Assembly (NCBI GenBank): GCA_038217285.1
Contig: JBBQPO010000112.1
Location: forward strand, 1 to 18,346
Length of the DNA stretch: 18,346 nucleotides
Reading direction: 5' to 3'
Origin: Chthonomonadales bacterium
GTDB lineage: Bacteria > Armatimonadota > Chthonomonadetes > Chthonomonadales > Chthonomonadaceae
Position 1 is the first letter of the stretch, and every line of letters begins with the position of its first letter. The translations under genes were made by a program, and so were the position numbers. This document shows positions 5,174 through 18,170 of the stretch, piece by piece. The notes under the pieces are model-generated. The model searched no databases. It worked only from the letters and a program-made list of their open reading frames with translations, and had not been told where the DNA came from.

Positions 5174-6077
5174 CTAACGCCGTGCTCCGTGCTGCTCCAG
5201 CAGGTGAATAACGGCGCGATTACGCGTCGCCCGCGCGAGGGCTAAGGGGGTTCGGCCTTGCGCGTCACGTACGTTCGCATTCGCGCCTCGGGCGAGCAAC
5301 AGCCGCAGCATAGTCAGATCGGGCGCGTCCGTATTCAGCGGATCTGTTTCCAGAGCGACCAGCAGCGGCGGCTCACCGACAGAAGGATTGACATGGGCGC
5401 CCTTCGCCAACATCGCCTCCACCATCGGAATGTCATTGCGGTGGACGGCGGCGGCGAAAGGCGTCCATTTTCCGACACTATCGGCGTGATTGGGATCGGC
5501 AAGCCGGGCGAGAAGATCGGCGACAATCTCCTGTTCATTCCTCAGCGCCGCATGCCAGAGCGCCGTCTCTCCCTGTTCGTCGCCATCTTCCAGCGGAGCC
5601 CCCCCGTGCCAGCAGCGCCCGTACGCTCACCGTGTCGTCCTGTTCCACGGCTAGCGTCAAGGCGGAGGCCTCCCGATTCTGGCCCTCCGTACTGTTGGAC
5701 ATGCGGTCGAACAGGTTGGTCAGGCGCTGCCACAAAGAGAGGCTGACATAGTGACTCTCCCGGGCGTTTGAGTCGGCTCCCTGCTCCAGGAGGGCGGTCA
5801 CGGCGGCACTCTTCTTCTGCCGGATTGCAGTCAGGAGGGCGTTACCGAGTCGTTCCTGGCGAAGCGCCAGGTAGACGGGCCAGAACAAGACGGCGGCGAT
5901 CCCTAGAACCGCTGCCATGAAAGAAGCAGTTCGCCGCCCCCCTCTCCTTCTTCCAACGCTTTCCATCCTCGTTGGTTGGAGGATCCCCTCTCCCTCTTGC
6001 GCGTCGTTTCTCCGGCTTGCCTGTTCCATCGACTTCCTGTTCCTCCGACGTCCGTCGTCGTTTCGCTGCTGCTTCAT
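5174..6077 (-). pseudogene. N-terminal TM-anchored ankyrin-repeat protein, split by a +1 frameshift in a G7 run
   Basis: ORFs 6077-5535 and 5425-5174 join if one G is removed from G7 (C7 at 5599-5605), giving LLARGAPLEDGDEQGETALWHAALRNEQEIVADLLARLADPNHADSVGKWTPFAAAVHRNDIPMVEAMLAKGAHVN, i.e. continuous ankyrin repeats (~300 aa). Confidence 0.85.
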
Positions 6078-9279: not shown

Positions 9280-9667
9280 TCAGGGGGTATCGGTGGGGTG
9301 AAGAAGTTGTTCGGCAGGTTCCACAGAGGCGTGAGGCAGAGCAGGGCGCAGCAGAGTGTCCGGCCGTGCGGTCGGCCCCTCAATAGGACGCAGCAGCAGC
9401 GAACCGACCAGTCTACTCTCCACAGAGCTCGGTTCAGACAGCCCCGCTGCATCGGGCTCAGGAGACGGGAGTCACTCGCCTGCAGACGCGGCAGCAGGCG
9501 GGTCAAAGACTGTTCTACCGTGGTCACGACGTGCTTACTTCAAACTTTAGAAACTCCAATGCCTCCGCCAGCGGCCCTACAGCCCGCACATCATCGAATC
9601 GTGAGATCGCCAGAGCGGCCGCCTTCTGTGCGTCTCGTCCTCCGGTTCGACCTGTTCTTCTGTGCAT
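9280..9667 (-). pseudogene. Degenerate HEAT-like repeat protein remnant with triple-LLR C-terminal tail
   Basis: Three pieces separated by frame changes: QKAAALAISRFDDVRAVGPLAEALEF / VEQSLTRLLPRLQASDSRLLSPMQRGCLNRAL / ESRLVGSLLLRPIEGPTARPDTLLRPALPHASVEPAEQLLHPTDTP* (stop 9282-9280). D.RAVGPL.EAL is HEAT/PBS-like. Confidence 0.65.
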
Positions 9668-9708: not shown

Positions 9709-10593
9709 TCAGCGGTTTCCGCCAGGAGAGCGATAACTGTGAATAAGGCGGGCGGCAGGCTTGTGGCCGTAGGTGACGGCGAGATCTTCTGCCGTTTTGC
9801 CATACTGGGTACGCAAGGTTGGATCGGCTCCTGCCTTGAGAAGCAGGGCGACGGCCTCCACATGGCCCTTGTCGGCAGCAGCCATAAGCGCTGTTCGGCC
9901 CAGATAGCCGACCGCGTTCACGTGTGCACCCGCTCGCAGCAGGATCTGGATGGATTCCCGATTGTCGGCCGCCGCCGCATAGGTTAACGGCACCAAACCG
10001 TCTTTGTTGGGCCTATTCGGATCCGCGCCATGGGCGAGAAGGTAGGAGAGGTCTGCCGCATGCCGATGATTCACGATGACTTCTATCAGTGGCGTCATGC
10101 CCAAAACGCGGTAGTTCACGTCTGCACCGTGCTGCACAAGCAGTTCGACATTGCGATGGTATACCGAACTTATCGCGAAATCGAGGGCCGTGACTCCCTG
10201 GTCGGTCTGAGCATGGACGTCCCCTCCTGCCTCTAGCAGAGCCTGTACGATCCGGTCGTTCGGATGGAAAGCGGCAAACATCAGGATGGTCGATCCATGA
10301 GATCGTGGTCGTTTCCTCTGGAAGACGATCTGCGGAATATCGAGTAGGGTAAAGGAGGGTTCGTAGCCAGGAGCATTGGGATCCGCCCCCTCCGCCAGCA
10401 GCGCCTGCACCAGCGCCTCATTTCCGTGGGACACGGCCGCCGCCAGACGCAAGTTTCGATGGTGGCGCACGAGGGCTGTGGAAATAGTCCAGGCGACTGC
10501 GATGCAGGCCACGCCCAATACCGCCAAAATCGAGAAAGCCCTTCGCCGTCTCCGATTTATGTGGTCGCTTCGCTTCGAATCTTGAATTTCCAT
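9709..10593 (-). CDS. N-terminal TM-anchored ankyrin-repeat protein, 294 aa
   Basis: RRRRR followed by a hydrophobic helix, then about 6-7 ankyrin repeats (GVTALDFA, GMTPLIEV, GRTALMAAADKGHVEAVALLLKAGADP, GKTAEDLA). GGAGG upstream. Confidence 0.92.
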   Translation of the reverse strand: MEIQDSKRSDHINRRRRRAFSILAVLGVACIAVAWTISTALVRHHRNLRLAAAVSHGNEALVQALLAEGADPNAPGYEPSFTLLDIPQIVFQRKRPRSHGSTILMFAAFHPNDRIVQALLEAGGDVHAQTDQGVTALDFAISSVYHRNVELLVQHGADVNYRVLGMTPLIEVIVNHRHAADLSYLLAHGADPNRPNKDGLVPLTYAAAADNRESIQILLRAGAHVNAVGYLGRTALMAAADKGHVEAVALLLKAGADPTLRTQYGKTAEDLAVTYGHKPAARLIHSYRSPGGNR

Positions 10594-10741
10594 AGCTCAC
10601 CTGCCTCCGTACAGTCGATTTGGCTCGAACCGTGGCGACCCTCCTAAAAGATCGCTTTCATTCTCCTTTACGTCGCCCCGTGGGCCTGGTTTCGGATTAT
10701 CGGCTTCCTATTGCGAGGTCTGGTGCGCGGCCTGACGACCA

Positions 10742-12668: not shown

Positions 12669-13154
12669 TCAGGATGCGCGTCGCAAGAGTCTCTCTATAT
12701 TCCCGACCCAGAGCAGGTAGGTTTCCAACGGACCGCCCTGAAGGGCGTTGTATAGCCGCTCATCTGCGGTCACCAGAAGTGCGTTCTCGCGCACAGCCAG
12801 GGCCACGTACAAGCTGTCGTAGACGGTGCGCCCCGTGTTGCATGCGATCTCCATAGCGGACATCACGAGTGGCCAGGACGGATGCACCACTAAAGGCAGG
12901 TCGCCCAGCACCTGTAGGAGCGCGGACGCCTCGTCCGGGGTGATCTCGCCGCTTCTTACCCGCTTCCAGAGGATGTTGCCGACCTCCGAGTAGAGCAGGT
13001 CGGGAATCAGGAGAACGAGACCGGGGGAAAGCAAGCGCAGCGCCTCCTCTGCATGAATCTCTGGCAGGAACCACTTTACCGCTACACTGGCGTCGACGAC
13101 CACAGGACGCATGGACTGCTCTTCCCCTCCCGCGCTCGTCGCCATGTCGCTCAT
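12669..13154 (-). CDS. vapC: VapC/FitB PIN-domain toxin
   Basis: VVVDASVAVKW, EVGNILWK, TVYDSLYVALA and LVTADERL PIN motifs. ATGA overlap with the antitoxin stop (alternative start 13112). Confidence 0.93.
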   Translation of the reverse strand: MSDMATSAGGEEQSMRPVVVDASVAVKWFLPEIHAEEALRLLSPGLVLLIPDLLYSEVGNILWKRVRSGEITPDEASALLQVLGDLPLVVHPSWPLVMSAMEIACNTGRTVYDSLYVALAVRENALLVTADERLYNALQGGPLETYLLWVGNIERLLRRAS

Positions 13155-13381
13155 CGCTCCCGATCCTCACGCAGCAACGCAACGCTGTCGCCAAATGTGC
13201 GGCCTGCGAACAGGGCGCGCACCCGCTCCACCTCAACCCGCATCTCAAAAGGATCGGATGCGACAGTCGAGCGAAAGATCGCGCGCACCTCTGCTTCCAG
13301 TGAGCGCCCGTTTCTCTGCGCCCGTGCCTTGAGCTTCTCCATAACGGCAAGGTCCACATCCCGTACAAGTACTTGCGACAT
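13151..13381 (-). CDS. FitA-like ribbon-helix-helix antitoxin
   Basis: MSQVLVRDVD..VMEKLKARAQRNGRSLEAEVRAI and C-terminal DSVALLREDRER. AAGGAGG RBS. Lies directly upstream of the PIN gene. Confidence 0.92.
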   Translation of the reverse strand: MSQVLVRDVDLAVMEKLKARAQRNGRSLEAEVRAIFRSTVASDPFEMRVEVERVRALFAGRTFGDSVALLREDRER

Positions 13382-13409
13382 CCTGAGAGCCTCCTTCAGT
13401 GCGATCTAT

Positions 13410-13448
13410 TGATAGCATTATGATAGCATACAGAGCATTGTCCGTCAA
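13410..13448 (-). promoter_or_regulatory. TA operon promoter with overlapping operator repeats
   Basis: TTGACG (13448-13443), 17 nt, then TATCAT (13425-13420) with an extended -10 TG. ATGCTATCA occurs twice (13429-13421 and 13418-13410). Confidence 0.8.
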
Positions 13449-13499
13449 CGTGCCCGTCCGTTTTCCGGTATGCGTGGGGCCATGTCTCCGCCTTCGATA

Positions 13500-13719
13500 T
13501 TCAGGAGGCACGGCGGTATCCCCCTGGCTACTCGCGCGTGCGCACCCTCTTGCGAATGCTGGAGTTGCAGGAGAAGCGAATGGATTGACCCGTCCCGGTG
13601 AACACCTCCTCCGCGCCTCCAACCCTTTCCCTTTGGGCTTGGAAAACCTGCTGCGTCCGGCCCAGAGCACGCAGCAAACTGATCCGCAGGAACTCCTCCG
13701 CCCCAGCGACCCCGAATAG
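13500..13719 (+). pseudogene. 3' remnant of a gene ending in a triple-LLR tail
   Basis: RPGEHLLRASNPFPLGLENLLRPAQSTQQTDPQELLRPSDPE* (13591-13719). The listed start (13399) lies in the TA leader and the frame runs through the TA promoter, so it is not credible. The left boundary is approximate. Confidence 0.55.
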
Positions 13720-14132: not shown

Positions 14133-14786
14133 TTACCCCTTCTCAAATAGATTGGCGACGTTGTTGCGATTGAACTTCAGGGCATCCGCCCGCGCGCTGC
14201 GCCCATTGGGAGAGGTTCGGTTAGGATCGGCTCCGCTCTCCAACAGCAAGCGGGCGACCTCGAAATACCCCTGATTGGTCGCATACATCAGCGCGGTAAG
14301 ACCGGTGAATCCCTGCGCATCCACTTTTGCGCCCGACTTTATCAGCAGCCATGCAATGTCGGGGTCGTTGTTCCGCGCTGCGCGGATCAGCGGTGTTTCC
14401 CCGCTCAGAGGGTAACGCGCTTCCGGATTGGCTCCCGCTTGCAGCAGCAGGCGAGCGACTTCGAGCCGTCGGTACTGGATAGCAAGATGCAGGGCCGAGA
14501 GACCGTTTGCCGACAGTGCCTCCGCTCCCATGCCCTGTTTGAGAGTGAGTTGTATGTCTTCCTGCTCATTGCGAATGATGACGCGCAGGAAAGCCTCCTC
14601 CACCGGTGCCCCCTTCCTGCATCGCCCCGCATGTCTGGTCCGCCAAAGGCGGACTTTAGTCTTAACGGCCCGCACGACCCGGGCGACGCGTCGCACGACA
14701 AACAAAAGACAGTCGAAAATACCCGTGAACAGAAGCTCGAAAAATCGCTCGTCCCAGCTCGGTTTTGCAGGCGATGTGTTGGACAT
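14133..14786 (-). CDS. Ankyrin-repeat protein, 217 aa
   Basis: GLSALHLAI, GETPLIRAA, GLTALMYATNQGYFEVARLLLESGADPN. Hydrophobic and then basic N-terminal segment. Confidence 0.9.
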   Translation of the reverse strand: MSNTSPAKPSWDERFFELLFTGIFDCLLFVVRRVARVVRAVKTKVRLWRTRHAGRCRKGAPVEEAFLRVIIRNEQEDIQLTLKQGMGAEALSANGLSALHLAIQYRRLEVARLLLQAGANPEARYPLSGETPLIRAARNNDPDIAWLLIKSGAKVDAQGFTGLTALMYATNQGYFEVARLLLESGADPNRTSPNGRSARADALKFNRNNVANLFEKG

Positions 14787-17267: not shown

Positions 17268-18170
17268 ATGATACGTCTCGGACTTTGCTGCACTTTTCGC
17301 GACCAGCCGATCAAGTTTGTTGATACGACGGCGACCGCTCTCAGCCGTATGGCCCGTGCCGATGCGCTTGACAAGCTCGCCCGCCTTTGCGCCACGAATG
17401 CCGACGCGTTGTTGGCTGCGCTCGGCTTCTGCGCCGAACACGGCATCGGCAGCTTTCGCATCAACAGCCAGATCCTTCCTCTCAAGACGCATCCCCAGGT
17501 CGGATATGAGATGGGCGATCTGCCTGGAGGCGAGGAGATCGTCCGTCGCTTCCGTCACGCCGGGGAGTTCGCAACGCAGCATGGTCTGAGGGTCTGCTTC
17601 CATCCCGATCAGTTCGTGGTGTTGAACTCGCAGCGGCCCGAGGTCGTCGAAGCTTCGGTGCGAGAACTGGAGTATCAGGCCGAAGTCGCGACGTGGGTCG
17701 GCGCCGATGTCCTCAATATCCACGGAGGCGGGGCGTATGGGGATAAGCCGAAGGCGCTCGCCGATTTTGCCGCCAACCTTGCTCGCCTCTCTTCCACCGT
17801 CAGAAGCCGCCTGACGCTCGAGAACGACGACACGACTTACTCCCCTGCCGACCTCCTGCCCCTGTGCCGCGCCGAGGGGCTGCCGCTTGTCTACGATGTG
17901 CATCACCATCGGGTCCACCCAGACGGAATGTCTATAGAAGAAGCGACGGCGCAGGCGCTGGCCACCTGGAATCGGGAGCCGTTGTTTCATATCTCCAGTC
18001 CTCTCGAAGGCTGGAACGGGCCGAGGCCCCGACGTCATCACGATTTCATCGATATCGCCGACATCCCCTCGTGCTGGCGACCTCTTGATATTACGGTGGA
18101 GGTGGAGGCCAAAGCCAAGGAAGTGGCCGTTCTCGCCCTGAAGCTCCATCTGCAAGAGCAGAGAGGGTGA
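17268..18170 (+). CDS. uvsE: UV DNA damage repair endonuclease UvsE
   Basis: MIRLGLCC, FRINSQILPL.THP, FHPDQFVVLNS, NIHGGGAYGDK, LENDD, YDVHHHR, HISSP, HHDFI and VEAKAKE.A motifs. Confidence 0.95.
   Translation: MIRLGLCCTFRDQPIKFVDTTATALSRMARADALDKLARLCATNADALLAALGFCAEHGIGSFRINSQILPLKTHPQVGYEMGDLPGGEEIVRRFRHAGEFATQHGLRVCFHPDQFVVLNSQRPEVVEASVRELEYQAEVATWVGADVLNIHGGGAYGDKPKALADFAANLARLSSTVRSRLTLENDDTTYSPADLLPLCRAEGLPLVYDVHHHRVHPDGMSIEEATAQALATWNREPLFHISSPLEGWNGPRPRRHHDFIDIADIPSCWRPLDITVEVEAKAKEVAVLALKLHLQEQRG

Follow-up and report, generated by a model that had tools for sequence, protein, structure and literature searches.

The window, which is the whole stretch of 18,346 nucleotides of Chthonomonadales DNA analysed here, contains two copies of a triple LL(R) motif on opposite strands (Table 1). 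Six-frame translation agrees with the letters and spacings reported in the initial annotation: successive motifs are 14 and 16 residues apart in the minus-strand copy and 14 and 15 residues apart in the plus-strand copy. In both, the stop codon lies 8 residues after the start of motif 3, and an acidic residue stands 1–2 positions ahead of motifs 2 and 3, also as claimed. The annotation had assigned the copies to two separate genes. Both copies are dead, however, and neither ends an intact gene: the frame at 9280 is the end of a decayed gene that has lost its start, and the frame at 13387-13719 is a deletion scar.

The minus-strand frame spans 63 residues from stop to stop and has no start codon. 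In tblastn searches it matched two proteins that carry the tail (hereafter carriers), C85:19730 at residues 245-292 and C7:17267 at residues 270-315. With C85:19730, an intact paralog, as the reference, three pieces of one pseudogene can be recognised in three frames; the N-terminal ~115 residues with the membrane hairpin gave no match in this comparison. Contigs of runs X2 and X4 hold ~250 nt more than the window at 9411-9420, and those of runs X2-X4 have one extra base at 9537. The window pseudogene has a ~250-nt deletion at the former site and a 1-nt loss near the latter. Run X1, possibly the source sample, equals the window letter for letter, so the breaks do not stem from an error of this single assembly. 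Upstream, contigs of X2 and X3 join 9787 to 10741 and lack the ankyrin-repeat gene that the window has in between; this gene is likely an insertion.

The plus-strand tail is 84% identical to the last 45 residues (270-314) of the 314-aa carrier P0092 and to that part only, and no homology to the P0092 body was found upstream of it. Contigs of X2 stop at 13506 and restart at 13585, preceded there by ~2.5 kb of other DNA; X1 crosses the 13506/13585 junction unchanged. The frame is a scar in which a deletion has joined the remnant of a repressor gene to the tail. A gene pair for a FitA-like RHH antitoxin and a PIN-domain protein (12669-13381, minus strand) adjoins the scar. Elsewhere in the window, minus-strand ankyrin-repeat loci also lie at 5174-6077 (apparently split) and 14133-14786, the plus-strand gene at 436-1893 has a PEP-CTERM-like tail and no Pfam match, and the plus-strand gene at 17268-18170 presumably encodes a protein resembling UV-damage endonuclease.

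Table 1. Tail copies and adjoining gene remnants in the window
Feature	Position	Strand	Details
Stop-to-stop frame, last ~46 codons the triple tail	9280..9471	-	LLRP 9396-9385, LLRP 9354-9343, LLHP 9306-9295; stop 9282-9280; 3' end of 2-TM/HEAT-like pseudogene
Second pseudogene piece, HEAT-like body, other frame	9411..9539	-	51% identity to C85:19730 aa 151-193
First recognisable pseudogene piece, start of HEAT-like body	9551..9643	-	76% identity to C85:19730 aa 116-149
Ankyrin-repeat gene at the place taken in relatives by the 5' part of the carrier gene	9709..10593	-	Pfam Ank
BlaI/MecI-type repressor remnant, frame differs from that of the tail	13468..13564	+	76% DNA identity to L272 gene, PF03965 at 98.9 bits
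Orphan triple tail left by deletion	13582..13719	+	LLRA 13606, LLRP 13648, LLRP 13693; stop 13717-13719

The triple tail occurs more often than chance allows, because a strict regular expression for it matched 7 frames among the genome's 84,509 that end in a stop, against none in each of 20 shuffles, and because the best match of a tail HMM on reversed frames had an E-value of 0.11. The expression proposed in the initial annotation matched 3 frames. The HMM was built from 36 seeds, one of which (C226:8213) is probably a chance frame and was omitted from the 40-tail alignment, A1. It returned 44 rows at E<0.1 in G000, the genome of the window, one of them probably chance and two belonging to one frameshifted gene; the genome search with A1 gave 42 tail matches. 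Motif 3 lies within 46 residues of the stop in 37 of 38 stop-terminated G000 copies. In a library of 1.84 billion representatives, 2,473 clusters (50% identity) bear the tail at E<=0.001, and among the best 150 library matches the tail ends 40 residues or fewer from the C-terminus in 147, in line with the C-terminal enrichment that had been anticipated.

Across 39 tail copies of G000, Leu and Arg are each encoded by the full set of their six codons. This full synonymous spread beneath an invariant L-L-R argues for selection on the protein, as the initial annotation had held, and largely refutes the notion that the tail lacks a role at the protein level, being a DNA repeat or the passive remnant of an ancestral gene family. 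That both window copies are remnants and that about half of the carriers fall into one HEAT-like group would be compatible with such a passive origin, but the tail is kept across the 2,473 library clusters at 50% identity and is borne by unrelated bodies. We therefore regard this explanation as very improbable.

Comparison of 303 distinct tails from 325 sequences reveals a unit of ~40 residues with three motifs at near-fixed spacing. The motif cores, L-[LV]-R, are near-invariant. Motifs 1 and 2 are 14-15 residues apart in 270 tails and motifs 2 and 3 are 15-16 residues apart in 285, figures that are biased by the HMM-based ascertainment of the set. The linkers had been described as unrelated, yet the flanks are conserved by position, with Ser after motif 1 (253/303), Ala after motif 2 (233/303) and Pro three positions before motif 3 (193/303); an acidic residue is found at most two positions before motifs 2 and 3 in 87-88% of the tails. 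Conservation of flanks and spacing across the set indicates that the tail is one inherited unit. Its linkers are rich in P, A, E, S, Q and T, and the tail is hydrophilic. The distance from motif 3 to the stop ranges from 5 to 91 residues with a median of 12, and the value of 8 seen in both window copies is shared by 26 of the 303.

The tail was found in 63 of the 68 genomes of the order (presumably Chthonomonadales), with 3 to 84 matches each. All 41 genomes of family f1, 21 of the 24 of family f2 and neither of the two of family f3 have it. The tail-less members are G109, G247, G163, G136 and G334, and these five gave no convincing match to the HEAT-like body either. A phylum sample of 301 genomes, with at most 24 candidates scored per genome, included 267 from outside the order, of which a single one matched; this hit (G128, E 8.9e-4), which falls in the 5' portion of an ORF for an unrelated enzyme, is spurious. 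A DNA pattern scan covered 80 of 123 stretches: 74 of the 80 loci, taken with their flanks, lacked a tail and were mostly chance matches, and the six that scored are all titled Chthonomonadales or Chthonomonadaceae. Two hits come from sources named Chthonomonadaceae. The initial annotation had described such tails on many Armatimonadota proteins; the carriers are indeed many, but they are confined to one order within the phylum.

No Pfam or NCBIfam family covers the tail in the 42 proteins searched. PHROGs matched none of 40 tails and PADLOC none of 40 carriers, the best PDB match to the tail (E 0.013) is partial and unrelated, and the ESM Atlas yielded no usable tail match; queried with a whole protein, the Atlas returned HEAT clusters and an unnamed cluster composed mostly of Armatimonadota (0.92). 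The supposition that no domain model exists thus holds for Pfam, NCBIfam and PHROGs. We found no description of the tail motif in the literature, where a mention is possible in subscription journals or supplements. The tail is a real, unnamed, lineage-wide module.

The proteins that carry it are diverse. BLAST comparison of 279 carrier bodies produced two large groups without links between them (151 and 102 members), the remaining 26 falling into 21 small groups. The best Foldseek matches of the HEAT-like body are alphaRep/PBS HEAT folds (E 1.4e-3; none at E<=0.001), and repeats of the PBS-lyase type (PF13646, PF03130; alphaRep, CpcE/F) make up the body of the largest carrier group. These families cover the body only and not the tail, and many bodies score below their cut-off. 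One small-family body proved unlike the HEAT family in a profile comparison (probability 2%), and two carriers from one genus are Spo0M proteins above the Pfam cut-off. Judged by sequence, the tail sits on at least three unrelated bodies, namely HEAT-like, small 2-TM and Spo0M, and, in keeping with the initial annotation, it is not confined to one homologous full-length family. A possible fourth body is that of P0134 and of the carrier at L191:3823-4431, which have a TM hairpin and a small HTH-like domain before the tail (PF12728, E 0.016, below cut-off). P0145, apparently a chimeric assembly, was left out as a new body. Carrier bodies diverge fast, to 25-45% identity. A 650-aa carrier type, present in 31 of the 68 genomes, is conserved as a single copy in a housekeeping context.

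Crude hydropathy analysis predicts a TM segment in 249 of 302 carriers. For 156 hairpins identified in the same crude way, K+R residues average 3.5 ahead of the loop, 0.7 inside it and 2.8 behind it, a positive-inside pattern that points to an N-in/C-in arrangement with both ends in the cytoplasm. Most carriers are predicted to be membrane-anchored and to expose a cytoplasmic tail at the inner membrane. A C-terminal amphipathic helix, which we take to be like the membrane-targeting helix of MinD, is present in 7 of 37 long TM-less carriers and absent in the other 30, compared with 1 of 226 TM carriers.

In some carriers the tail is internal. L046 and L048 have an extra HEAT-like unit after it, and in P0001, P0002, P0093 and P0155 two modules, both with a tail, are fused. 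The C178 carrier (G000:C178:9930-12143, L023), of the small 2-TM type, reads through its tail, the only internal one in G000, into a frame resembling a multiheme cytochrome c lipoprotein. The portable C-terminal tag envisaged by the initial annotation is portable and mostly C-terminal, but it does not need a free C-terminus.

AlphaFold models of carriers contain a confident TM hairpin and a helical body with pLDDT >90, and the tail appears as an extended coil with neither helix nor strand at pLDDT 54-68 (54-59 with 40 sequences, 57-68 with 98 sequences). The tail is not folded back onto its own domain in either of two monomer models, which speaks against carriers binding each other, tail to HEAT-like body or tail to tail, to line the membrane as a network with no outside partner. 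Such self-assembly would suit the joint lack of HEAT-like body and tail in the five tail-less genomes, the finding that nearly all clear HEAT-like body matches in G000 bear a tail (one intact tandem paralog excepted), and the occurrence of tandem arrays and fused double modules. Yet a tail core that stays invariant while the bodies diverge is better explained by one conserved partner, and we consider self-assembly rather unlikely.

Carrier genes, single or tandemly arrayed, are dispersed among housekeeping genes, and their repertoire turns over fast. No dedicated neighbour gene family recurs across 79 carrier loci; ClpS-like, ARC-like and MoxR-like neighbours were rejected as partners because each recurs in 1-3 loci only. 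A ribosome-arrest peptide of the RAPP/RAGP type was also rejected, since the motif differs and the downstream genes are not conserved. Several loci have a composition of their own. At L195:4449-10321 (G314), and at this locus only, four tandem carriers lie between genes that we take to be MoxR-like AAA and DUF58-like. The operon at G000:C59:194-6309 (L010) consists of a coiled-coil membrane gene, three TM-less carriers and a lipoyl-synthase-like gene; the first of the carriers begins with a helix that looks amphipathic. L119 has a comparable carrier pair. At G000:C88:738-10166 (L275, L014), a TM-less HEAT carrier is transcribed divergently from a Pup-ligase/Dop pair accompanied by what are presumably an ARC-like ATPase gene and a 62-aa UBact-like gene. 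The gene after pspA is presumably a 2-TM coiled-coil gene in G163 (L282:1357-3162) and, at G000:C65:781-2216, a small gene with a J-domain-like C-terminus.

A large, scattered and fast-turning-over repertoire with pseudogenes is reminiscent of effector sets, and many PilB/PilT-like ATPases are recognisable by motif in the genome. Both observations would be expected if the tail marked the carriers for export as effectors destined for other cells. However, FHIPEP (PF00771), VipB (PF05943) and VirB4 (PF03135) were not found in the 95%-complete G000, although control genomes scored. The failure to find type III, type VI and VirB-type IV markers makes an export signal unlikely, as do the conserved single-copy carriers in housekeeping contexts, such as the 650-aa type, and the internal tails, and we judge export improbable. 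The G000 proteome includes a 56-member pilin-like N-methyl/DUF1559 group and about a dozen of the PilB/PilT-like ATPases, but a flagellar/type III export gate was not found in it.

An invariant core on divergent bodies, a fixed spacing and the dispensability of a free end together argue for docking on one oligomer. We infer that the tail probably docks carriers on one shared partner. The best explanation overall, to which we give roughly an even chance, is that the tail is a multivalent docking module for one oligomeric partner, most likely an AAA+ unfoldase. The triple-LLR tail would dock carriers with triple avidity onto a single conserved oligomer with equivalent sites, the variable HEAT-like bodies would serve as client-binding adaptors, and a ring-shaped AAA+ unfoldase, as the most likely partner, would remodel, extract or recycle the carriers.

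A degron would make different use of an extended, P/E/S/T-rich and predicted cytoplasmic tail, which might hand membrane proteins to a housekeeping protease (FtsH, ClpXP via its N-domain, ARC/proteasome) and so keep them short-lived. FtsH is present in 17 of 17 genomes tested and Pup ligase in 45 of 45 near-complete genomes, and the ClpX-docking peptide of SspB contains a Leu-Arg pair, which also counts for a degron. Two carriers are Spo0M proteins, and Spo0M of B. subtilis is degraded by FtsH according to the available text of PMC5325327. FtsH and Pup ligase, however, also occur in tail-less genomes and leave the restriction to one order unexplained, and the internal tails in L046, L048, P0001, P0002, P0093 and P0155, together with end distances of 5 to 91 residues, do not favour a terminal degradation signal. 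The tight triple spacing, moreover, exceeds what a degron usually needs. We consider a degron unlikely.

The docking model calls for a partner, and six candidates picked from the P-loop inventory were profiled. The leading one is a 427-aa protein with TPR and AAA domains by Pfam (G000:C18:30744-32027; L233:760-2040, minus strand), for which we found no description in the literature. Its closest solved structures are VAT/p97/Cdc48; it has a single AAA module, a conserved aromatic-rich TPR region and a conserved hydrophobic insertion. This TPR-AAA protein is usually single-copy and belongs to the core of the order. Among 45 near-complete genomes it is present in all 41 that bear the tail (40 by N-domain; G275 at a contig edge); in tail-less G109 and G247, both of which retain Pup ligase and FtsH, it was not found. 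It is nevertheless present in tail-less G163 and G136, and family f29, in which searches gave no tail, has orthologues in 9 of 19 genomes. Searches of tail-bearing G312 and G314, which are 64% and 80% complete, did not recover it. TPR-AAA and tail were lost together in one event, in one genus, and any order-core gene would fit a pattern of presence wherever tails are. The gene adjoins a carrier in 1 of 30 loci, which at a chance expectation of 0.25 equals chance. TPR-AAA is thus a leading but weak candidate, and we hold it doubtful that it is the docking partner.

Other candidates were rejected. Pup ligase (45/45 near-complete genomes), PspA (44/45 genomes) and FtsH (17/17 genomes tested) fail to separate tail-bearing from tail-less genomes. 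The WD/TPR gene next to a second AAA ATPase (C143) was found in none of the 24 f2 genomes. Tandem Band_7 pairs looked absent from tail-less genomes, but those of different families are not orthologues, and four tail-bearing genomes gave no such pair.

Known recruiting motifs offer partial parallels. ESCRT-III MIM motifs are short, C-terminal and located on membrane-associated proteins, and they recruit an AAA ATPase via its helical N-domain (available text of PMC11218997). Bacterial Vps4-like ATPases beside TPR/6TM genes are mentioned in PMC11237479, whose available text does not contain the string 'Armatimonad-'. The tail is like the MIM1/MIM2 motifs that bind the Vps4 MIT domain in being a short linear C-terminal motif on membrane-associated proteins, and the candidate TPR domain might read LLR as the MIT domain reads MIM tails. 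The tail does not match the MIM2 consensus in the available text of PMC11218997, and its profile has no significant similarity to the MIM2 peptide of Vfa1 (E 0.56-0.68). Unlike MIM, the LLR motif is triple and has a fixed spacing; the carriers are HEAT-like, small 2-TM or Spo0M proteins and not Snf7/PspA as in ESCRT-III, and the candidate ATPase has TPR in place of a MIT domain and is closest to p97.

The p97/Cdc48 motifs (VIM, VBM, SHP) on ER membrane adaptors and the XB motif of SspB for ClpX likewise recruit a shared unfoldase. Carriers resemble these adaptors in joining a variable, putatively client-binding body to a constant flexible tail with a Leu/Arg core. As they are generally described, however, the p97 motifs and XB occur singly and are bound by the N-domain of p97 or the zinc domain of ClpX, whereas the tail is triple and the candidate TPR-AAA lacks the p97 N-domain and has one AAA module. 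By analogy, the tail would work like MIM-Vps4 or the p97/ClpX recruiting motifs, yet it belongs to none of these classes. With PEP-CTERM, sortase and GlyGly-CTERM signals it shares the placement of one short C-terminal module on many unrelated proteins of a lineage. Those signals end in a TM helix and a basic cluster and are found on exported proteins; the tail, in contrast to PEP-CTERM and sortase signals, is hydrophilic, triple and predicted to be cytoplasmic, and, unlike in those systems, no cognate enzyme gene lies beside the carriers at the 79 loci.

Lineage-wide shared tails have repeatedly hinted at unknown sorting or remodelling machines. The tail described here marks at least 2,473 protein clusters in an order that has received little study, and a genome may have as many as 84 matches. 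New are its order-wide profile with natural losses, the membrane-side rule, its portability to Spo0M and a candidate partner. In the most far-reaching reading, which we offer as speculation and think unlikely to hold in full, Chthonomonadales would possess a p97/ERAD- or Vps4/ESCRT-like recycling system: the tail would recruit a single-ring TPR-p97-like segregase to membrane-anchored HEAT adaptors (few to >80 per genome), each capturing a different client, be it the cell's own damaged proteins or those of invading phages, for extraction at the inner membrane. If the partner is a TPR-p97-like ATPase, the tail would reveal a eukaryote-like combination of variable adaptor, constant recruiting motif and segregase at a bacterial membrane.
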